A stretch of DNA of 64,000 bases. It comes from Patescibacteria group bacterium. Lineage in GTDB: Bacteria; Patescibacteriota; Microgenomatia; UBA1406. The notes under the pieces are model-generated. The model saw only the letters and a program-made list of their open reading frames with translations, did not search any database and was not told where the DNA came from. Where the stretch lies: the NCBI GenBank assembly GCA_041665145.1, contig JBAYJK010000003.1:133177-197176 (forward strand), given 5' to 3'. A program made the translations under genes and the position numbers. Below, one piece after another: positions 44,401 to 55,196 of this stretch (its first letter is position 1; every line of letters starts with the position of its first letter).

Positions 44401-45237
44401 GCCGGGAAGTTTCATTCTGTACGGTTGGTTCCCCGTAAAAATAAGCGTGTCGGTACCGGAATGAGGATTGGTATAAATAACCGGCCACCATGTCTGCATA
44501 AGTGTTACTGGCAGTTTACTTGCGGATTTCCAAACGAGTGTACCGTTTGTCGCATTCAACGCATACGCAAAAGAATCTGAAGCTGCGAAATACAAAATGC
44601 TGTTTTTATAAGCCGCTGAAATGTTAATCGGGTGTCCTACATTGTATCTCCAATCCAATTCTCCCTTGTTTACTGCATCATCGTTCGAGTAAATAGAGTA
44701 GAAATAACCGTCCCTATTCCCCAAATAGACACGGTTACCGACGACAACGGGGTTTGTTACATAACCCTGCCCCGCTCCGTCGTACGACCACAGTTTTTGG
44801 CCGTTGGTAATGTCGATTGCGTAGAGTCTTTTATCCACTCCTCCCACATATGCCACGCCGTTTACGATAGTCGGCGAATTTCCCAACGACATTTCCGTCG
44901 GAAAAACCCATTTAACACTTCCGGTAATTGCGTCCAGTGCGTACAACCCGCGGGAAGTAGAAACATATAAGGTGTCATCTATGACAACCAGTTGCACATT
45001 GTGTGGAATATACGCATCAAACGGTTTGTACCATTCTACGGATAACTGACCCGACACCTCCGCCGCCGTCCACGATGTCCGCTGCAAGTTTGCACCTGCC
45101 ATGTACCATGTATCGGTGAGATTGTCGCTCGCCTGAACATCCTGAGTTTTCCTCAATAAGAAGTTGCTGACAAAAAGAGAAATGACGCCTACCGCCACAA
45201 AAGTCATAAGGATATGGAAAGCAATTTTTTCTCGCAT
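41413..45237 (-). CDS. Giant membrane-anchored surface protein: PQQ-like beta-propeller, unassigned ~550-aa domain, P/T linker, FN3, LysM, CarboxypepD_reg-like, C-terminal TM
   Basis: PQQ-like repeats (LYALDAITGSVKW, LYAIDITNGQKLW, FAYALNATNGTLVW). PTSTPTSTPTPTVTPIP linker. FN3-like YYFRIRAVNGCKTGEWS. LysM YTVTSGDTLWSIAEKLFG. TMs at both ends. Confidence 0.8.
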   Translation of the reverse strand: MREKIAFHILMTFVAVGVISLFVSNFLLRKTQDVQASDNLTDTWYMAGANLQRTSWTAAEVSGQLSVEWYKPFDAYIPHNVQLVVIDDTLYVSTSRGLYALDAITGSVKWVFPTEMSLGNSPTIVNGVAYVGGVDKRLYAIDITNGQKLWSYDGAGQGYVTNPVVVGNRVYLGNRDGYFYSIYSNDDAVNKGELDWRYNVGHPINISAAYKNSILYFAASDSFAYALNATNGTLVWKSASKLPVTLMQTWWPVIYTNPHSGTDTLIFTGNQPYRMKLPGSNYVDLQNLDANEFLGPTYGTSGEIGPRDGQQLMDISSAAAYWETPTALEQSSDPNGLARDNHKPWRRTVFVLDATSGGEVTFDINSNGSADYAPFFWTGTRSGMRYPAVIGGDNLIYLANTYFVNTVSVTRGHAVGWDIGTPYIKTPFTQTRANDEPIAFSAGGNVIYYSMCCDRAVGAAHTTTGTNWLYYEYAGIDSQAPGYNIKTMGTDQDKSVEVFGSKTAGTGYNGAALGQNGVYGYHGEQSPPIPYIASDSTGRVYTKEGNAIVVFSAAGGGLQLPDATVTSTSQGLPEVDTADITARLENEITKVIAAGHLRPGYSTHGGFDPATLEQYGDDLTDYFHNTADTVLALSNAYPHVSSGLQTSIQTYLQSEMASYSPCTYRNNGWGGASRNSMGSALAGFDLPPDVEINTGTNPADWGTNFAGWAWPPYPLYAVWKYAQNTGANPATLFTSCSGKLGTPPSDTTLEAYPEALNAWIAGYKGYVELAKLANQPYATQETELNRLLALRVSNFPVTLNFPFSPDSHNSQRSIAVARNFMFLTPELGAHLSQNISSTMLTAYNLYNTVAPYWMIGFYSQAYGESSVETLYDYDALFNAQAWILGASRQKLRSFLDAPNFVRGDMFHIQHLVSILEATPTVLPTSTPTSTPTPTVTPIPLPDASPTPVSHAPSSTVSQTSSSVAAPVCSDQDVGKTVPGIYSAVIMDDHSIRLQFSAASDPTDHYSLQFGESSGNYTYGADTIGGKGTSEYIVKSLQSGTTYYFRIRAVNGCKTGEWSNEISATTSSPTLIRELKFVDSTLTATPLVCSLYTVTSGDTLWSIAEKLFGAGEKYQELVTANLSHYPSLKDTKNINVGWELRYDCPDDGKTSKPAQEKDKSEVLGTGYELKVAVVDTNKKPVAGATVTIHSKVQVQQTDTRGIAVFKNVASGNHRVLIAYDDYKGEQAINLKGNVARFDLHVIVEKKDSNLIPVVIGVSLIPATLILLVMFFIRRT

Positions 45238-45245
45238 TTAGAAAC

Positions 45246-45251
45246 ATTGTA
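45246..45251 (-). promoter_or_regulatory. -10 box TACAAT, 8 nt upstream of ATG 45237
   Basis: Minus strand reads TACAAT-gtttctaa-ATG. Confidence 0.4.
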
Positions 45252-45278
45252 TAACTTTTGTGACGAACATCACTAAAA

Positions 45279-45884
45279 TTATAACTGAGTTTTCAATAAA
45301 TGCGCAAGTCCGTATTTATAGAAAAAATCATTTGGATCCTCATTTGCATAGTATAAGGGTGCCATTTGCTGATATTGAACGATTAGCGTCTCAATCCATT
45401 TTTTTCCCGCATTTAAAATATACGCTTTACGTTTTTCAGGCGAAGCAATGTGACCACATCCACTTGTCCAGTTAATCGTGGCACTGGCGTTTTCAGCATA
45501 GTTTTCTAGCCCTCCCCAACCACAGTTCAACCAGACTAATGTACGTGCTAACTTAAGGGATGCGCCGTCGAAAGTAAGTCTTGTATCAAAATCAACAGGG
45601 TAACAGGCAATTCTCGAAAGGTCTTCATGAGCAGTAATAATGTTCATATCAACTCTCAGATAAGGGAATACCACTTTACCTCCTGTTGCATTACGACCGC
45701 TGGAAAACCAGTTTATCGTAGTATCAATCGGAAGCGCTGTTCCAAGACGGTAGATGACGTTGAAATAGGGTCCGGTAAAACGAAATCGAAGTGGGTTACC
45801 ATTGAATTTTCTTCCAAAAGCTAACCTAACCTGGTTAACATACTTTGCTTTGTCTAAGAAGGATGGTAATTTTTCGGCTGTCAT
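45279..45884 (-). CDS. Hypothetical protein (201 aa)
   Basis: Long ORF with no motif recognised. Start trimmed to ATG 45884, because the track's TTG start (45914) would translate tRNA-like repeat DNA. Confidence 0.5.
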   Translation of the reverse strand: MTAEKLPSFLDKAKYVNQVRLAFGRKFNGNPLRFRFTGPYFNVIYRLGTALPIDTTINWFSSGRNATGGKVVFPYLRVDMNIITAHEDLSRIACYPVDFDTRLTFDGASLKLARTLVWLNCGWGGLENYAENASATINWTSGCGHIASPEKRKAYILNAGKKWIETLIVQYQQMAPLYYANEDPNDFFYKYGLAHLLKTQL

Positions 45885-45890
45885 GTGTAA

Positions 45891-45950
45891 TGGTGGGTCA
45901 GCTAAGCTGACCAATCACCACGCTGAGCGTGGTGGGTCCAGCGGGACTTG
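45891..45950 (-). repeat. Direct-inverted-direct copies of the tRNA-Lys 3' terminus, forming two triloop hairpins
   Basis: Minus strand: CAAGTCCCGCTGGACCCACCA (45930-45950), hairpin CACCACGC-TCA-GCGTGGTG (45916-45934), hairpin GGTCAGC-TTA-GCTGACC (45896-45912), then GCTGACCCACCA (45891-45902). Confidence 0.8.
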
Positions 45951-45997
45951 CTCAACTGACCGTTGACGAGCCTTCAGGAGTCTTACGGGCAGTTAGT

Positions 45998-46012
45998 CCT
46001 GACTATGTCAGG
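45998..46012 (-). repeat. GC-rich triloop hairpin CCTGAC-ATA-GTCAGG (hairpin family member)
   Basis: Perfect 6-bp inverted repeat read directly. Related to the hairpins at 46041-46057 and 46065-46081. Confidence 0.7.
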
Positions 46013-46030
46013 GGAATCTGCTGTTACTTT

Positions 46031-46093
46031 GTGGGTCCAGCCCCGATTATATCGGGACAACCAACCCCGACTACGTCGGGACTGCTCTGCTGA
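46031..46093 (-). pseudogene. 3' half of a tRNA-shaped pseudogene (D-stem 3' strand, hairpin, variable region, hairpin, acceptor 3' strand)
   Basis: Minus strand: CAGCAGAGCAG-TCCCGACGTAGTCGGGG-TTGGTTG-TCCCGATATAATCGGGG-CTGGACCCAC. Flanking segments match tRNA-Lys, but the anticodon and T arms are replaced by triloop hairpins. Confidence 0.7.
46058..46090 (-). repeat. 33-bp direct repeat, copy 1
   Basis: caaccaaccccgactacgtcgggactgctctgc is identical to 46422-46454. I checked it base by base. Confidence 0.95.
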
Positions 46094-46103
46094 TTAATTT
46101 AGG

Positions 46104-46176
46104 TGGGTCCAGCGGGACTTGAACCCGCAACCAACTCCTTAAGAGGGAGCTGCTCTACCAATTGAGCTATAGACCC
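46104..46176 (-). tRNA. tRNA-Lys (anticodon CTT)
   Basis: Hand-folded cloverleaf: acceptor GGGTCTA/TGGACCC, D arm GCTC-AATTGGTA-GAGC, anticodon arm GCTCC-CTCTTAA-GGAGT, T arm GCGGG-TTCAAGT-CCCGC, discriminator A. CCA is not encoded (ACCT). Confidence 0.93.
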
Positions 46177-46409
46177 ATTATGCCTTTTAAGTAGACCTTA
46201 TTCTTCAACCCCTTCAAGTATCGCTCTCTCTTTACTGCCTCACCTCTCGTAAGAAAGTCCTCTGTATAGACAAGAACCCACGGCTTTCTAGTACTTGTAT
46301 ACTTATGCCTGCAACAATTATGCTCGACCAATCTTCTGTCTACATCATTAGTCGACCCAATATAAAATGACTTATCTTTTTCGCTCTGCAAAACATATAT
46401 ATGAAACAT
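46167..46409 (-). CDS. GIY-YIG nuclease family mini-protein (YhbQ/UPF0213-like, 80 aa)
   Basis: MFHIYVLQSEKDKSFYIGSTNDVDRRLVEHN..RE.. carries the GIY-YIG motifs. Its TAG stop (46167-46169) lies at tRNA-Lys positions 8-10. Start trimmed to ATG 46409. Confidence 0.85.
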   Translation of the reverse strand: MFHIYVLQSEKDKSFYIGSTNDVDRRLVEHNCCRHKYTSTRKPWVLVYTEDFLTRGEAVKRERYLKGLKNKVYLKGIMGL

Positions 46410-46418
46410 ATACAGTGT

Positions 46419-46472
46419 CCGCAACCAACCCCGACTACGTCGGGACTGCTCTGCCAATTGAGCTATAGACCC
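46419..46472 (-). pseudogene. 5' half of the tRNA-shaped pseudogene (acceptor 5' strand, D arm, hairpin, variable region, T-stem 5' strand)
   Basis: Minus strand: GGGTCTATAGCTCAATTGGCAGAGCAG-TCCCGACGTAGTCGGGG-TTGGTTGCGG. Positions 1-27 differ from tRNA-Lys by one base. Confidence 0.75.
46422..46454 (-). repeat. 33-bp direct repeat, copy 2
   Basis: Identical to 46058-46090. Together the two copies bracket 331 bp holding the GIY-YIG ORF and tRNA-Lys. Confidence 0.95.
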
Positions 46473-46487
46473 GAAAATACAAGGAAA

Positions 46488-46496
46488 ATTATAGCA
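46488..46496 (-). promoter_or_regulatory. Extended -10 box TGCTATAAT upstream of the tRNA fragment / GIY-YIG / tRNA-Lys unit
   Basis: The minus-strand TGCTATAAT ends 15 nt before the first G of the 5' tRNA fragment. Confidence 0.5.
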
Positions 46497-46508
46497 TAAA
46501 ATGCGCTT

Positions 46509-46664
46509 TCAGGTCGTGATAGTTAACCATACCGACCCAAGAATAACAACGAATATGGTCGCAAAAGGAATCCTGTATAAGACCATCTCAAACAAAAGCA
46601 TTACACACAACGTGTTTACCGCAAAGAAAAAATACGCAATTTTTTTTATTATTTCTGGTGACAT
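46509..46664 (-). CDS. Possible small membrane protein (51 aa)
   Basis: MSPEIIKKIAYFFFAVNTLCVMLLFEMVLYRIPFATIFVVILGSVWLTITT has two hydrophobic helices. AGGAAG lies 8 nt upstream of the ATG. It sits 60 nt downstream of the DUF2294 gene. Confidence 0.3.
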   Translation of the reverse strand: MSPEIIKKIAYFFFAVNTLCVMLLFEMVLYRIPFATIFVVILGSVWLTITT

Positions 46665-46724
46665 ACGACGAGCTTCCTGATTAGCTATCGGAATACTCGA
46701 CGACCAGAATAATACCCTGTTCGT

Positions 46725-47096
46725 TTAGTCTGCCGCTTCGAATTTTCTATCTAATATAAAAACCTCCAATCGCTCTCCACTTCGGGTGCTAATGTCGCTG
46801 TGGGAGCCGACCACTTTATAACCGAGGATTTTCGCGATTTCCGGACCCAATTCCTTTGTCGTTACTTCGTGTAACTGTTTTCTGAGATCTTTAACTATTC
46901 TATAACCGTGTTCCGCCTTTAAAAGCATTTCTTCCATCGGCATCAAACGCCCTTTCAGTCTCACGATCACCATATCGTCTACTATGTAAACGCGGGTTTC
47001 TCTCGGCCCAAAGCCAATATTTTTGGAGTAAAACGCAGCGACAATTTTGGAAACCGCATCTTCGTATTGACGTTTAGTTCTCGGTGTGACTGTCAT
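46725..47096 (-). CDS. DUF2294 family protein
   Basis: ..GFGPRETRVYIVDDMVIVRLKG.L.P.E..L.......V...R..L.......E..K..G.KVVGSHSDISTRSGERLEVFILD matches my recollection of DUF2294. Confidence 0.65.
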   Translation of the reverse strand: MTVTPRTKRQYEDAVSKIVAAFYSKNIGFGPRETRVYIVDDMVIVRLKGRLMPMEEMLLKAEHGYRIVKDLRKQLHEVTTKELGPEIAKILGYKVVGSHSDISTRSGERLEVFILDRKFEAAD

Positions 47097-47106
47097 AGAA
47101 GGGTAA

Positions 47107-47136
47107 ATTATACCTGAGCCGATGTGATACTGTCAA
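47107..47136 (-). promoter_or_regulatory. Consensus promoter TTGACA-18 nt-TATAAT, with the -10 box 10 nt upstream of ATG 47096
   Basis: Minus strand: TTGACA (47131-47136) and TATAAT (47107-47112), read directly. Confidence 0.55.
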
Positions 47137-47154
47137 CGCTTTTGAACTTCCTGC

Positions 47155-47185
47155 AAGGGTTAAACCCTTTAAGGGTTTAACCCTT
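47155..47185. repeat. Perfect 31-nt palindrome AAGGGTTAAACCCTT-T-AAGGGTTTAACCCTT
   Basis: Read directly. A half-unit, AAGGGTTAAACCCTT, recurs at 51959-51973 next to tRNA-His. Confidence 0.9.
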
Positions 47186-47194
47186 AAAGAAGTC

Positions 47195-47212
47195 TGGTGC
47201 CGGAGGGAATTG
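47195..47212 (-). pseudogene. Orphan tRNA 3' fragment (T loop/stem plus acceptor) ending in CCA
   Basis: The minus-strand CAATTCCCTCCGGCACCA matches the tRNA-Arg(TCG) T-arm/acceptor CAATTCCCTCCGGAAGCA, except in the acceptor. It lies 85 nt downstream of the intact gene. Confidence 0.65.
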
Positions 47213-47257
47213 TTCCGATGCTGTTTTCGAGAAACGAGTAATTACAGCATCGTGAAT

Positions 47258-47273
47258 CCTCGACGCAGTCGGG
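47258..47273 (-). repeat. Hairpin family member (CCCGAC-TGC-GTCGAG, one G-T pair)
   Basis: Plus strand: cctcgacgcagtcggg. Same CCCGAC/GTCGGG core as the hairpins in the tRNA-Lys locus. Confidence 0.55.
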
Positions 47274-47296
47274 AAACCCTTTATATATAGGTTCTG

Positions 47297-47368
47297 TGCT
47301 TCCGGAGGGAATTGAACCCTCATCACTGGTTCCGAAGACCAGTACTCTATCCATTGAGCTACAGAAGC
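47297..47368 (-). tRNA. tRNA-Arg (anticodon TCG)
   Basis: Hand-folded: acceptor GCTTCTG/CGGAAGC, D arm GCTC-AATGGATA-GAGT, anticodon arm CTGGT-CTTCGGA-ACCAG, T arm GAGGG-TTCAATT-CCCTC, discriminator A. No CCA encoded. Confidence 0.9.
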
Positions 47369-47384
47369 AGTCGACTACCCTATA

Positions 47385-47393
47385 TGGTAAAAT
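47385..47393 (+). promoter_or_regulatory. Extended -10 box TGGTAAAAT, 8 nt upstream of the tgt ATG at 47402
   Basis: TGGTAAAAT-tataacac-ATG, read directly. Confidence 0.45.
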
Positions 47394-47400
47394 TATAACA
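47392..47400 (-). promoter_or_regulatory. Extended -10 box TGTTATAAT for tRNA-Arg(TCG)
   Basis: The minus-strand TGTTATAAT lies 23 nt upstream of tRNA position +1 and overlaps the tgt -10 box by 2 nt on the opposite strand. Confidence 0.45.
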
Positions 47401-47401
47401 C

Positions 47402-48574
47402 ATGAAGTCCTTCACTTTCGAAATAAAACAGCGCTCCCCGGTAAGTAAAACCCGACTTGGCACTATCCATACACCCCATGGTGATATTGAAACTCCAGCG
47501 TTTGTTCCCGTCGGCACGAAGGCCACGGTTAAAAGCCTTATTCCCTCGGAAATTTCAAACTTAGGATATAACCTGCACTTTGTTAACACGTACCATATGC
47601 TTGTTCATCCGGGTCCTGAAGTTGTCAAAAAAGCTGGTGGTCTCCATAAATTTATGAATTGGGACAATTGTTTGATAACAGACAGTGGCGGCTTTCAAGT
47701 ATTCTCCCTCGCTTCTGTTATATTAAAGAAAAATGAGCATGGAGTTTTGTTCCGGGATCATTATTCGGGACAAACCATAGATTTAACACCCCGGTTCTCT
47801 ATTGAGACCCAAAGGTCACTTGGAGCGGACATCATCTTGCCGCTTGACGATTGCACTCCCTACCCTGTTACGGAAAAGAAAGCGCAAAAATCTCTTGCAT
47901 TAACTCAAAACTGGTTTCTTCAATCATACGAAACGTATAAACAAACCACTTCCGTGACTAAAAAACACCAGGCGTTGTACAAGATTATTCAAGGCAGCCT
48001 ATTTGAGAATTTAAGAAAAGAGTCCATCAAATTTTATCGTGATAATAACATCGAAACGGATGGCTGGGCTATTGGTGGTGTTTCTGTTGGAGAATCTAAA
48101 CCGGATATTTATGATATCACTAATGTGTGCATGGATCTTATCACGGGAGATAATCAGCCGGTACATCTCTTGGGAGTTGGAGAAGTCGATGACGTTTTTG
48201 ACATTCTTCATGCCGGTATCGACACCTTTGACTGCGTGCAACCGACACGCCTTGCCCGCATGGGTATGGCGTATAACTTTTCTATACCCAAATACTCCTT
48301 TTCAATAGAGGAAATGAAATACAAAGAAGACTTTAACCCTCTTGATTCACAATGCGGTTGCTATACCTGCACACACCATTCACGGTCGTATATTCATCAC
48401 TTGTTTAAAATGAAAGAACTTACCGGTTACCGCCTGATAACTATTCATAACCTCTTCATGATGCAAAAGCTTGTGCAAAGTATTAGAATAGCTGTTATTA
48501 ACAATACGTGGGAAGCAATTTACCATCAGTTCAAGCATGACGAGTTTACCGACCTTCACAAAATCTTTAATTGA
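47402..48574 (+). CDS. tgt: tRNA-guanine transglycosylase (queuine tRNA-ribosyltransferase)
   Basis: RLGTIHTPHGDIETPAFVPVGTKATVK, DSGGFQVFSL, LLGVGEVDD, FDCVQPTRLARMG and the Zn site CGCYTC..H. Confidence 0.93.
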   Translation: MKSFTFEIKQRSPVSKTRLGTIHTPHGDIETPAFVPVGTKATVKSLIPSEISNLGYNLHFVNTYHMLVHPGPEVVKKAGGLHKFMNWDNCLITDSGGFQVFSLASVILKKNEHGVLFRDHYSGQTIDLTPRFSIETQRSLGADIILPLDDCTPYPVTEKKAQKSLALTQNWFLQSYETYKQTTSVTKKHQALYKIIQGSLFENLRKESIKFYRDNNIETDGWAIGGVSVGESKPDIYDITNVCMDLITGDNQPVHLLGVGEVDDVFDILHAGIDTFDCVQPTRLARMGMAYNFSIPKYSFSIEEMKYKEDFNPLDSQCGCYTCTHHSRSYIHHLFKMKELTGYRLITIHNLFMMQKLVQSIRIAVINNTWEAIYHQFKHDEFTDLHKIFN

Positions 48575-51560: not shown

Positions 51561-51623
51561 TTGGTGGCTCCCGCCCGCCACGCAAGACGAGCTTGCGAGG
51601 CTTTGCGGGCAGGGTAGCTCAAT
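51561..51623 (+). pseudogene. Displaced tRNA-His 5' fragment (G-1 to position 16) interrupted by a 44-nt GC-rich hairpin
   Basis: TTGGTGGCT (51561-51569), then the insert cccgcccgccacgcaagacgagcttgcgaggctttgcgggcagg (51570-51613), then GTAGCTCAAT (51614-51623). Both flanks are identical to 51871-51889 of the intact gene. Confidence 0.75.
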
Positions 51624-51626
51624 GAG

Positions 51627-51866
51627 ATGTTATACTTTACATACGTCTTAAAAAGCACTGTCGATAATAAGTTATATGTTGGGTGGACTAATAATCTTAG
51701 GCAAAGATTTGAAAGCCATAATAAAGGTTTGGTCGAAGCTACTAAGCATAGACGTCCGTTAACATTAATTTATTACGAGGCAGGAATAAGCAAAGAAAAA
51801 GCAATAAGTAGAGAGAAATACTTTAAAACAGGCTTTGGCAGACGTTTTTTGTTAAGCAGAATTTAA
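51627..51866 (+). CDS. GIY-YIG nuclease family mini-protein (YhbQ/UPF0213-like, 79 aa)
   Basis: MLYFTYVLKSTVDNKLYVGWTNNLRQRFESHN...REKYFK carries the GIY-YIG motifs. Its stop lies 6 nt before G-1 of tRNA-His. Confidence 0.85.
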   Translation: MLYFTYVLKSTVDNKLYVGWTNNLRQRFESHNKGLVEATKHRRPLTLIYYEAGISKEKAISREKYFKTGFGRRFLLSRI

Positions 51867-51872
51867 ATAATT

Positions 51873-51947
51873 GGTGGCTGTAGCTCAATTGGTTAGAGCG
51901 CTGCCCTGTGGAGGCAGAGGTTGCGGGTTCAAGTCCCGTCAGCCACC
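51873..51947 (+). tRNA. tRNA-His (anticodon GTG) with encoded G-1
   Basis: G-1 plus acceptor GTGGCTG/CAGCCAC, D arm GCTC-AATTGGTTA-GAGC, anticodon arm CTGCC-CTGTGGA-GGCAG, T arm GCGGG-TTCAAGT-CCCGT, discriminator C73 opposite G-1. Confidence 0.93.
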
Positions 51948-51958
51948 CATTCAACTGT

Positions 51959-51973
51959 AAGGGTTAAACCCTT
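51959..51973. repeat. Palindromic unit AAGGGTTAAACCCTT (same unit as in 47155-47185)
   Basis: Read directly. Lies 12 nt after the tRNA-His 3' end and overlaps the stop codon of the convergent DUF4256 gene. Confidence 0.85.
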
Positions 51974-53978: not shown

Positions 53979-54070
53979 TTCTTGTATCAGGAGCGATAGG
54001 GATTTACTCCCTATCCAGCAACCGTGCGTAGTGCAGCGGTGCTCATCCCGCCCATGGCGGGAGATACGCC
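53979..54070 (+). promoter_or_regulatory. SAM riboswitch (SAM-I/S-box clan) in the metK leader
   Basis: Hand fold: P1 GUAUC/GAUAC; P2 AUAGGGA-UUUAC-UCCCUAU; conserved AGCAACC; P3 CCGUGC../GCAGCGG; conserved GGUGCUCA; P4 UCCCGCC-CAUG-GGCGGGA; closing GAGAUAC. Sits directly upstream of metK. Confidence 0.7.
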
Positions 54071-54095
54071 AATTATTATAAATTATTGGAAACAT

Positions 54096-55196
54096 ATGAA
54101 AATCTTCACTTCCGAGAGCGTGTGTGCCGGTCATCCCGATAAAATTTGCGATCAGATTTCAGACTCTGTTCTGGACGCAGCATTAGAACAGGACCCCATG
54201 TCCCGCGTTGCCGTAGAGACCATGGTGGGAAAAGATATCTGTGTGATTATGGGTGAAGTCACCACTCACGCAAAGTTGAACTACGAACTTATTGCACGAG
54301 AAAGAATTGAAAAACTTGGGTATACCAAAGCGTCATACGGATTTTCAAACAAGTCGAAAATAGAAGTCCATATCCACGAACAGTCCGTAGAGATAGCGGA
54401 AGGTGTGGATGACAAAGGTGCCGGCGACCAGGGAATGATGTACGGGTATGCATGTAATGAAACAGCAGAGCTTATGCCCATGCCTATTTCCATAGCCCAT
54501 AAGCTCGCCAAAAGAATAGACGAAGTCCGTGAAAAAGCCATTCTTAAATATCTTAAACCGGACGGAAAAACGCAGGTATCGATCGCGTATGAAAATAATA
54601 TACCGAAAGTCATAACCGGAATAGTAATTGCAGTTCCACACGAAAAAAGCATTAAACTAGAACAGGTAAAAAAAGATCTTTACGAAAACGTAGTTATTCC
54701 GGTGGTGGAAAAATATGCAATTCCTTATAAGGATTGTCTATACATAGTAAATGGAACAGGAGTATGGCATAATGGCGGTCCAGCTTCAGACACGGGCCTT
54801 ACCGGAAGAAAAATAGTAGTAGATACCTACGGAGGAGTCGGGAGGATTGGGGGCGGGGCATTTTCCGGAAAAGATCCCACAAAAGTAGATCGTTCCGGCG
54901 CATATGCAGCGCGTTACCTTGCTAAAAATATTGTCGCACATTCATTTGCCAAAAAAGCTGAGGTCCGTTTGGCTTATTTTATTGGGGCAAAAGAGCCGGT
55001 GATGCTGGAGTTTGAAACATTCGGTACGGAGAAAGCCTCTGAAAAAGTAATTCATGACTTTCTCAAAGAAACGCTTGATACATCCGTCAGCGGAATTATA
55101 AAAGCATTCAATTTACGAAGACCTATCTACGTTCAAACCGCAGCATATGGCCATTTCGGGAAGGAAGGATTACCATGGGAAAAGATTGTCGGATAA
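54096..55196 (+). CDS. metK: S-adenosylmethionine synthetase
   Basis: FTSESVCAGHPDKICDQISD, GAGDQGMMYGYA, GGPASDTGLTGRKIVVDTYGG and GGGAFSGKDPTKVDRSGAY. Start trimmed to ATG 54096; the track start at 54024 lies inside the riboswitch. Confidence 0.95.
   Translation: MKIFTSESVCAGHPDKICDQISDSVLDAALEQDPMSRVAVETMVGKDICVIMGEVTTHAKLNYELIARERIEKLGYTKASYGFSNKSKIEVHIHEQSVEIAEGVDDKGAGDQGMMYGYACNETAELMPMPISIAHKLAKRIDEVREKAILKYLKPDGKTQVSIAYENNIPKVITGIVIAVPHEKSIKLEQVKKDLYENVVIPVVEKYAIPYKDCLYIVNGTGVWHNGGPASDTGLTGRKIVVDTYGGVGRIGGGAFSGKDPTKVDRSGAYAARYLAKNIVAHSFAKKAEVRLAYFIGAKEPVMLEFETFGTEKASEKVIHDFLKETLDTSVSGIIKAFNLRRPIYVQTAAYGHFGKEGLPWEKIVG

Follow-up and report, generated by a model that had tools for sequence, protein, structure and literature searches.

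Hairpins within partial tRNA copies as a mark of tRNA-resident cassettes carrying a small GIY-YIG nuclease gene

The locus described here lies in a window of 64 kb (64,000 nucleotides of contig JBAYJK010000003.1) from a Patescibacteria (Microgenomates-like) genome with a GC content of 43%. On the minus strand, between positions 45890 and 46480, a TATAAT box is followed in order by a truncated 5' copy of the transfer RNA (tRNA) gene for lysine (psi5'-Lys), an open reading frame (ORF) of 80 codons encoding a GIY-YIG nuclease, an intact tRNA-Lys(CTT), an 11-nt spacer, a truncated 3' copy (psi3'-Lys), a hairpin (hp3), a further tRNA-Lys 3' fragment and two triloop hairpins. Small GC-rich hairpins stand within and between the partial copies, and comparison with related loci identifies them as integral, conserved and probably DNA-level cis elements of a tRNA-resident cassette, in which a tiny GIY-YIG gene and an intact tRNA on the same strand are set amid partial tRNA copies. 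The features of the tRNA-Lys locus are as follows.

46419–46472, minus strand: psi5'-Lys, a 5' partial tRNA-Lys copy (positions 1 to ~52) behind a tRNA promoter, with positions 28–42 replaced by hp1.
46429–46445, minus strand: hp1 copy a, TCCCGAC-GTA-GTCGGGG, at the anticodon-arm position of psi5'-Lys (-9.7 kcal/mol).
46167–46409, minus strand: GIY-YIG gene, 80 amino acids (PF01541, E = 9.7e-17), catalytic domain only.
46102–46176, minus strand: intact tRNA-Lys(CTT), called by ARAGORN and scoring 73.9 bits with the Rfam tRNA model.
46031–46095, minus strand: psi3'-Lys, a 3' partial copy (positions ~19–76) in which hp1 replaces the anticodon arm and hp2 the T arm (alignment A5).
46065–46081, minus strand: hp1 copy b, TCCCGAC-GTA-GTCGGGG, at the anticodon-arm position of psi3'-Lys.
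46041–46057, minus strand: hp2, TCCCGAT-ATA-ATCGGGG, at the T-arm position (-8.1 kcal/mol).
45998–46012, minus strand: hp3, CCTGAC-ATA-GTCAGG, between psi3'-Lys and the further 3' fragment (-8.2 kcal/mol, z = -4.6).
45931–45958, minus strand: second tRNA-Lys 3' fragment, CAAGTCCCGCTGGACCCACC, made up of the T-arm 3' half and the acceptor 3' strand (repeats D1 and D4, alignment A5).
45896–45934, minus strand: two additional triloop hairpins, CACCACGC-TCA-GCGTGGTG (45934–45916, -13.8 kcal/mol) and GGTCAGC-TTA-GCTGACC (45912–45896, -10.9 kcal/mol).

The original prediction, made from the sequence of the window, had proposed a family of triloop hairpins that replace tRNA arms, and its four hairpins at this locus were all recovered: the pattern YCCYGAY-N3-RTCRGGR matches at 45997–46013, 46041–46057, 46065–46081 and 46429–46445, nowhere else in the 64 kb, and in none of 100 shuffles. 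Their assignment to the anticodon-arm and T-arm positions of tRNA-Lys-like pseudo-copies is borne out by alignment with the true tRNA-Lys, since the 3' half of the D arm, the variable region and the acceptor 3' strand are retained and the anticodon and T arms are swapped for hairpins. The psi5'-Lys copy is defined by this alignment (A5) and by direct repeat D2 (46446–46472 versus 46150–46176, 96% identical); a second direct repeat of 38 nt, D5, hairpin included and common to psi5'-Lys and psi3'-Lys, flanks the unit of ORF and tRNA (46058–46095 versus 46422–46459, 95% identical). Relative to hp1, hp2 carries a C-G to T-A change at the loop-adjacent pair. The two hairpins at 45896–45934 had not been part of the prediction; they lie on or beside repeats of the tRNA 3' end motif GACCCACC, just ahead of the next gene. 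Folding energies at the locus span -8 to -14 kcal/mol, and six of the 18 GC-rich perfect hairpins of the window fall within 550 bp here. The motif is thus neither at random frequency nor unlinked to tRNA and GIY-YIG genes, but far above chance: of eight family-type hairpins in the window, six are at the tRNA-Lys locus, one is at a tRNA-His locus and one is in a riboswitch.

All pseudo-tRNA copies in the window are truncated at one end. Neither ARAGORN nor the Rfam tRNA model, which were used for tRNA calls, reports any of them even at E up to 1, and only the four true tRNAs of the window pass; a search of the window and 12 related loci against Rfam 15 likewise gave no match across the hairpins or pseudo-tRNAs. 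An independent assembly in ENA is base-for-base identical across positions 45169–46760 of the window, and the locus is therefore not an assembly artefact, while two unitig assemblies end inside the 33-nt repeat, as is typical of de Bruijn graphs at repeats. Two further observations were made at this locus. The psi-Lys copies (positions 46452 and 46088) differ from the working tRNA-Lys (position 46156) at one D-loop base, GGCAGAGC versus GGTAGAGC, and a related locus (L089, at about 141) likewise shows one D-loop difference between pseudo-copy and tRNA; such anecdotal differences could mark nuclease-sensitive and nuclease-resistant alleles. The downstream ORF of 211 amino acids was listed from a TTG within the last hairpin (45884–45914), its likely true start being the ATG at 45884, which would place the two terminal hairpins directly ahead of it.

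The Pfam match to PF01541 takes up the entire 80-residue protein, leaving no separate DNA-binding domain, and the catalytic residues Y5, Y16, R26, H30 and E62 are invariant or nearly so. Its closest solved structures are the UPF0213 proteins 1YWL (3.4e-10) and 1ZG2 (8.8e-08), followed by SLX1 (~5e-3), and it scores 21.6 bits with TIGR01453, for which the cut-off is 56. PADLOC returned a marginal match only (PDC-S14, E = 7e-4), and in a search for a phage origin we found neither a matching PHROG family nor a relative on viral contigs. The family comprises 31,373 representatives (at 50% identity) at E ≤ 1e-3 and 9,824 at E ≤ 1e-10, the top-scoring of which are mostly 80–130 amino acids long. We retrieved 160 related loci, 80 from species-representative genomes and 80 from metagenomes, using as query a 5-sequence alignment of close homologues. 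Ortholog pairs have a ratio of nonsynonymous to synonymous substitution rates (dN/dS) of 0.02–0.30 in the GIY-YIG ORF.

The ORF has no stop codon of its own; it ends at a TAG formed by positions 8–10 of tRNA-Lys, in an overlap at 46167–46176. The same arrangement, with the TAG at tRNA positions 8–10, 13–15 or 21–23, was found at 33 of 71 related loci at which the ORF precedes the tRNA. Cleavage by RNase P at the tRNA 5' end would strip the stop codon from the nuclease messenger RNA (mRNA), which hints at a non-stop mRNA and expression limited by transfer-messenger RNA. At the other end, a mechanical ORF list extends the gene to a TTG at 46457 (96 amino acids; 46410–46457, minus strand), so that it takes in hairpin and pseudo-tRNA sequence. 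Lengths of 100–130 amino acids, with the domain starting at residue 20–50, are common among database representatives of the family, and these N-terminal extensions may be the same ORF-calling artefact.

The association of hairpins with GIY-YIG genes suggested for this window holds across the 160 loci and many phyla, the hosts including Bacteroidota, Ignavibacteriota, Patescibacteria, Chloroflexota and Desulfobacterota among others. At 126 of the 160 loci, which between them involve 30 tRNA species, a tRNA gene sits no more than 300 bp from the ORF and without exception shares its strand; it follows the ORF in 64 cases and precedes it in 62. Where the ORF precedes the tRNA, a 5' partial copy is present upstream of the ORF at 58 of 63 loci and begins at tRNA position 1 in 45; where the tRNA precedes the ORF, a 3' partial copy lies downstream of the ORF at 51 of 58 loci and reaches the tRNA 3' end in 33. 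The inner ends of the partial copies vary. If a hypothetical circle with a truncated tRNA segment recombined with the resident tRNA by a single crossover, both gene orders would result, and so would the exact outer boundaries at positions 1 and 76.

Partial direct repeats of a tRNA are the classic footprint of tRNA-integrating elements, and the duplications might accordingly be read as attL and attR sites left by an integrase. We reject this reading, however, as there is no recombinase gene in or beside the window cassette, whose repeats enclose only the 80-residue ORF and the tRNA and whose neighbours are an MpsC-domain gene and an ORF without family match. Moreover, the inserted DNA amounts to only ~250–330 bp and 5' duplications are as common as 3' ones. 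With the locus identical in independent assembly and the chance expectation of the motif at 0, an assembly or chance artefact fares no better, and together these alternatives are barely credible.

GC-rich perfect hairpins are concentrated around the gene, with a density of 2.64/kb by the ORF versus 0.46/kb further out (~6-fold; 80 loci). They are found on the outer side of the ORF at 76–78% of loci and on the outer side of the tRNA at 30–44%, while the stretch between ORF and tRNA holds one at 7%; where the ORF comes first, they lie ~20–50 nt ahead of its start codon. Two related loci contain tandem arrays of 5–7 near-identical units directly upstream of the true tRNA (L036, 1994–2373, unit of 76 nt; L059, 1888–2398, unit of 73 nt), each unit being a 5' portion of the tRNA with a hairpin and a short spacer, the latter resembling the native upstream flank. 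At another locus (L031, 2746–2825) ARAGORN calls an 80-nt 'tRNA-Cys(ACA)' that is actually a full-length tRNA-Val copy with its anticodon arm replaced by TCCCGACATACAATGTCGGGA, so hairpin-swapped copies can be mis-annotated as odd tRNAs.

To avoid circular reasoning we defined inserts without regard to complementarity, as gaps separating two collinear tRNA-matching segments. The 105 unique inserts have a median folding energy of -10.9 kcal/mol, and 86% have z < -2. TCC opens 51%, and GGA closes 61%, of the 72 inserts no longer than 30 nt. The most frequent event is replacement of the anticodon arm, with the left flank stopping at 27–29 and the right flank restarting at 44–48; others are T-arm and D-arm replacements and pure insertions at 9/10, 11/12, 16/17, 21/22, 22/23 and 36/37. 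Recurrent hairpin families include TCCCGA..TCGGGA, TCCCGC..GCGGGA, TCCGCC..GGCGGA, CCTGCCTGCCGGCAGGCAGG and the long form CCCGCCTGC...GCGGGCAGG. What they share is the T-CC...GG-A base, with variable inner pairs and loops, and a closing T-A pair outside the CC...GG core is present in 56% of hairpins near the ORF versus 22% further away. The proposal that structure rather than sequence is preserved, with C-G pairs changing to T-A pairs on both arms, is well supported at these other loci: in 20 inserts of the same length 96.7% of cells are paired, compared to 68.9% in shuffles (0 of 500 shuffles as high), and five of the six pairs show compensatory change on both sides. Of nine ortholog pairs, six show 94–99% identity over 90 nt of the hairpin side, compared to 71–91% at third codon positions of the ORF.

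An alternative is that the hairpins are passive scars, inherited filler without a partner protein which inactivates the redundant tRNA copy and breaks its identity with the working tRNA; repeat recombination would then remove cassettes with hairpins less often, and the loci observed would be the survivors. The hairpins do sit midway in the duplicated tRNA segment, most often replacing positions 28–43, the repeat in the window is cut into blocks of ≤11 nt except for a 33-nt block that itself holds the hairpin, and deletions and duplications between repeat units do occur. However, perfect tRNA blocks of 27–32 nt remain beside the hairpin at many loci, so that homology is not minimised, and truncated 5' or 3' copies are already non-functional without a hairpin. 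Random filler would also keep no T-CC...GG-A base, Watson-Crick stems or clade-specific families, nor would it be copied to new positions. We therefore regard passive scarring as unlikely.

Several other sources and forms of the hairpins were considered and rejected. Derivation of the arms from the local T-arm or anticodon stem applies to individual cases (the last two hairpins at the tRNA-Lys locus, which reuse GACCCACC, and part of a hairpin gained in L021) and is not general. Perfect duplex palindromes, as would suit a dimer, are not enriched near the ORF (10/210, versus 6/166 further away), and the loops are real, mostly of 3–4 nt and diverse in sequence; special RNA loops (GNRA, UNCG) are negligible.

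The original prediction had also drawn a comparison with repetitive extragenic palindromic (REP) elements, on the basis of small GC-rich palindromes containing GTAG in an AT-richer genome, and had raised the possibility of independent mobile mini-palindromes. An element of this kind, resembling REPs or miniature inverted-repeat transposable elements, would spread by itself or through a REP-associated tyrosine transposase (RAYT) and gather in dispensable pseudo-tRNAs. Small GC-rich palindromes in a genome of 43% GC, one of them with GTAG, and pure insertions at several tRNA positions without flank duplication are in keeping with this. The GTAG, however, is a product of the GTA loop alone and is lost in orthologous copies, where the loop is TTA, TTTA or ATA, and the adjoining gene encodes a GIY-YIG rather than a Y1-HUH (RAYT) enzyme. 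Nor are the copies dispersed: those in the window are confined to three tRNA loci and one riboswitch stem, and those at related loci show the enrichment beside the GIY-YIG ORF described above. As the hairpins are confined to cassettes, an independent mini-palindrome is disfavoured and we consider it very improbable.

The same placement also fits a role at the RNA level, in which the hairpins would be stem-loops of the 5' and 3' untranslated regions of the nuclease mRNA, carved from a tRNA precursor and serving in protection from ribonuclease, damping of translation or a stop to read-through. Their position on the outer side of the ORF, rarely between ORF and tRNA and shortly before the start codon, is what would be expected, as are stems kept by compensatory change with variable loops and a leader that has changed less than synonymous sites. 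Triloops rich in A and G (GAA, AAA) slightly outnumber their complements, and a look-alike hairpin is present in a SAM-I/IV (S-adenosylmethionine) riboswitch of the window genome. The pairing itself, however, bears no signature of an RNA strand. The predicted G·U share in inserts is 2.7% in the sense and 4.1% in the antisense direction, compared to 11.0% and 4.3% in true tRNAs of the same loci, and T·G and C·A mismatches at the closing position are equal, at 10 each; a first, noisy test of strand asymmetry in mismatches gave 20 G·T versus 15 A·C. None of the hairpins in the window is followed by a T-run or flagged as a terminator. An RNA role would furthermore leave without explanation the recurrence of the same sequence families across phyla and tRNA species, the hairpins in tRNA fragments on both sides of the cassette (30–44% on the outer side of the tRNA) and their persistence in gene-less remnants, such as one at a tRNA-Arg locus of the window. 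We think it improbable that the RNA is the level at which they act. In moderate though not decisive manner, on the strength of predicted pairs, the data argue that complementarity is kept symmetrically, at the DNA level and in looped form; symmetric complementarity together with a real loop is more in keeping with hairpins or cruciforms than with a duplex bound by a dimer.

Intrinsic terminators were sought specifically at 45700–47500, where no hairpin was flagged and the sequences that follow the hairpins (TTGGTT, CTGGAC, ACTAAC) contain no T-run. A genuine intrinsic terminator, with stem and T-run, does occur downstream of tRNA-Asp at two related loci (L006 and L007, 2905–2940), and the top of its stem, TCCCGAG-TG-CTCGGGA, belongs to the same family as the pseudo-tRNA hairpin 450 nt upstream.

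The hairpin family co-varies with the clade of the nuclease (mutual information 1.105, compared to 0.717 ± 0.051 in permutations, with 0 of 5000 reaching the observed value), and each protein clade covers several tRNA species and both gene orders. The ORF in the window, for example, clusters with ORFs at tRNA-Asp in Flavobacteriaceae, whose hairpin, TCCCGAG..CTCGGGA, occupies a different tRNA position. Since local tRNA sequence flanks each hairpin on both sides, the hairpin family appears to travel with the gene and to be installed separately in each tRNA context. In a Roizmanbacteria locus (L004), TCCCGAC-NTA-GTCGGGG and its tRNA-Lys context are kept almost base for base although the ORF is only 59% identical, and the hp1 hairpin recurs in identical context in L004, L089/L091 and L093. 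GIY-YIG genes are among those predicted to have been transferred out of Patescibacteria [PMC12455944].

Closely related loci differ by whole units. L097 has one additional 90-nt unit of pseudo-tRNA and hairpin compared to the otherwise identical L009, L005 has an additional 77-nt leader unit relative to L006, and L132 and L147 show whole-unit differences with one junction lying within hairpin loops. In L021, compared to L013, an extra hairpin that is a near-copy of the neighbouring one stands in place of tRNA positions 11–17. We also observed that L005/L006 and L007 (2448–2463) carry TCCCGAG-TC-CTCGGGA and TCCCGAG-GA-CTCGGGA respectively, with reverse-complementary centres, as if the palindrome had been flipped.

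Taken with the architecture, these patterns lead us to a model in which the palindromes, which either strand could form, would act as DNA hairpins or cruciforms and provide a structural handle for a nuclease similar to SLX1, which is structure-specific, and devoid of a separate DNA-binding domain. Cuts at or near hairpins inside tRNA-derived repeats would be repaired from neighbouring copies, and this repair would duplicate or delete whole units of pseudo-tRNA and hairpin, as well as copy hairpins to new positions in the leftover tRNA. As side effects, no leftover copy could turn into a tRNA and homology to the working tRNA would be interrupted, which should slow loss of the cassette through repeat recombination. 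Among the functions offered in the original prediction, recognition by the nuclease and disabling of the displaced tRNA copy are thus both plausible. To this reading, of DNA-level hairpins as the structural handle of a UPF0213/SLX1-like nuclease with repair-driven turnover of units, we attach about even confidence. More tentatively, and on balance doubtfully, the cassettes may constitute a distinct class of mobile DNA, in which a GIY-YIG enzyme reduced to its catalytic domain uses clade-specific DNA hairpins to cut and remodel tRNA genes, swaps their arms, carries or regenerates a working tRNA and is exchanged across phyla. It would then be the GIY-YIG counterpart of hairpin-guided HUH systems (REP/RAYT, IS200/IS605).

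A number of points weigh against a nuclease that acts through the hairpins. Binding or cutting of the hairpins by the nuclease is suggested by the co-variation of hairpin family and protein clade, which could also reflect no more than linkage and shared ancestry. GIY-YIG enzymes are hydrolases without the ability to ligate DNA; host repair would therefore have to carry out any copying of hairpins, an assumed step. Stems of 6–8 bp are short for cruciform extrusion in duplex DNA, and the intact tRNA beside the ORF remains a potential target of the nuclease. The position of hairpins at the outer ends of the ORF transcript fits stem-loops at mRNA ends as well, and a similar hairpin at the P4-like position of a SAM riboswitch shows that such stems occur in ordinary functional RNA. 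At the insertion points of the related-locus inserts we saw neither a target-site duplication nor a conserved target motif. An empty site or close relative was sought through the neighbouring MpsC protein; a metagenome scan gave no relative and an exact-protein look-up gave the identical sequence only. With no empty site recovered, mobility of the cassette is deduced solely from its distribution and from differences in unit number.

The hairpin pattern is present at three of the four tRNA loci of the window, the two others having the following features.

51563–51623, plus strand: psi5'-His, GGTGGCT followed by a composite GC-rich hairpin of 44–45 nt (51570–51614, CCCGCCCGCC...GCGGGCAGGG) and then TAGCTCAAT.
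51627–51866, plus strand: second GIY-YIG gene, 79 amino acids (PF01541, E = 1.1e-16), ending 7 nt before tRNA-His(GTG) (51874–51948).
47195–47273, minus strand: gene-less remnant downstream of tRNA-Arg(TCG) (47296–47368), with repeat D4 and inverted repeats I13/I14.

The second GIY-YIG ORF is 31% identical to that at the tRNA-Lys locus and has psi5'-His as its leader, a 5' tRNA-His copy split by the long hairpin (-23.5 kcal/mol), to which the long inserts CCCGCCTGC...GCGGGCAGG of L004 and L040 are homologous. The tRNA-Arg remnant comprises a hairpin, CCCGAC-TGC-GTCGAG (47258–47273), an 8-bp stem, GATGCTGT/ACAGCATC, and a 3' tRNA-Arg fragment, CAATTCCCTCCGG (47195–47212). This hairpin had been put forward as a relative of those at tRNA-Lys; it is present, albeit with imperfect pairing and little stability (-4.4 kcal/mol, z = -1.3).

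Two further sets of palindromes were observed. A second family, AAGGGTTWAACCCTT, has three copies where none is expected (47155–47169, 47171–47185 and 51959–51973), all at downstream edges of tRNA loci, the first two beyond the tRNA-Arg remnant and the third 11 nt past tRNA-His, with no T-run after any. Upstream of metK (start ~54087), a SAM-I/IV riboswitch at 53979–54105 on the plus strand scores 44.2 bits against a gathering score of 41.1; it was missed by the default gathering-score scan and recovered with laxer filters only. The riboswitch carries an extra stem-loop, TCCCGCC-CAT-GGCGGGA (54046–54062), in the place of SAM-I P4, and this belongs to the same family as the pseudo-tRNA hairpins.

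What appears to be new here is the recognition of hairpin-swapped tRNA remnants as the mark of a widespread tRNA-gene cassette, of a kind that resembles selfish nuclease cassettes with cis palindromes. The full-text literature searched, whose coverage leaves out most subscription-journal papers so that a prior description is possible, contained no description of tRNA-linked UPF0213 cassettes or hairpin-swapped pseudo-tRNAs. The proposed function would give a role to one of the largest uncharacterised families of small proteins in bacteria, now annotated as 'GIY-YIG nuclease family protein', and would bring a nuclease fold into the small set of enzymes that handle DNA hairpins. It would also account for an annotation nuisance, namely tRNA fragments, tRNA-like repeat arrays, miscalled tRNAs and possibly N-terminally extended ORF calls by tRNA genes. 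The cassette bears on the evolution of tRNA genes, as it duplicates, truncates and re-tiles essential genes in genomes down to 0.9 Mb. A minimal nuclease of 80 amino acids with a 16-nt structural address would be an attractive scaffold for tools, and since cultivated Pedobacter and Daejeonella strains (Pedobacter sp. Leaf170, P. aquatilis, Daejeonella rubra DSM 24536) carry the cassette, the system can be tested now.

Among known systems, integrative elements that target tRNAs insert by means of tyrosine or serine recombinases; the tRNA is made whole again and a partial copy, nearly always of the 3' part, is displaced as a direct repeat, the elements themselves spanning kilobases. The cassette differs in having no recombinase, equally frequent 5' and 3' duplications and an insert of ~0.3 kb. 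Mobile GC clusters and palindromic hairpin elements of fungal mitochondria are short GC-rich palindromes that have entered AT-rich genomes, structured RNA genes among their sites, where GIY-YIG homing endonuclease genes abound; unlike the hairpins described here, they belong to organelles, have no tie to a single small nuclease gene and show no systematic replacement of tRNA arms in duplicated tRNA fragments. In the IS200/IS605 family the enzyme recognises DNA hairpins, insertion occurs without target duplication and non-autonomous hairpin-only copies exist. That enzyme is an HUH transposase, which works through a covalent intermediate at a fixed target of four or five nucleotides. Small size, recognition of a hairpin (proposed for the cassette) rather than a duplex and the lack of target duplication are shared; however, no conserved target motif was found for the cassette, and its GIY-YIG enzyme is incapable of strand transfer.

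By sequence the cassette protein groups with UPF0213 (YhbQ-type) and SLX1-like proteins, which also provide its best matches among solved structures. SLX1 cuts branched and stem-loop DNA in a structure-specific manner, and this resemblance makes recognition of hairpins plausible, although SLX1 requires SLX4 and has a C-terminal zinc-finger domain, and UPF0213 proteins have no assigned substrate. The passages available to us of a survey of the GIY-YIG superfamily [PMC1564403] contain no link to tRNA genes.

In its working the cassette is most like two other systems. The free-standing GIY-YIG homing endonuclease genes (seg) of phage T4 promote nuclease-driven recombination that leads to their preferential inheritance, and SegB brings about segmental amplification of tRNA loci, as two reports describe [PMC2330249, PMC13096335]. 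The cassette likewise has a GIY-YIG gene among tRNA genes, and the changes in unit number at related loci resemble amplification by SegB. Seg proteins, however, have a C-terminal DNA-binding region and are phage-borne, whereas the cassette protein is a bare catalytic domain of 80 amino acids encoded on the chromosome, and we know of no hairpin-swapped pseudo-tRNAs at Seg loci. In the REP/RAYT arrangement (REPtron), short GC-rich palindromes of a family specific to the gene lie on either side of a nuclease- or transposase-type gene, and the family co-varies with the protein clade, as is the case here. REPs are described as high-copy extragenic repeats tagged with GTAG or CGTC [PMC3733652]. Such a tag is absent from the cassette hairpins, whose orthologous copies read TTAG, TTTAG or ATAA; REPs occupy hundreds of extragenic sites, whereas the cassette copies stay in tRNA-derived sequence by the gene; and a Y1-HUH enzyme stands in place of the GIY-YIG hydrolase. 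Lacking a DNA-binding domain and a phage context on the one hand, and a GTAG tag, dispersal and an HUH enzyme on the other, the cassette works most like the T4 SegB system and the REP/RAYT arrangement and is a member of neither.

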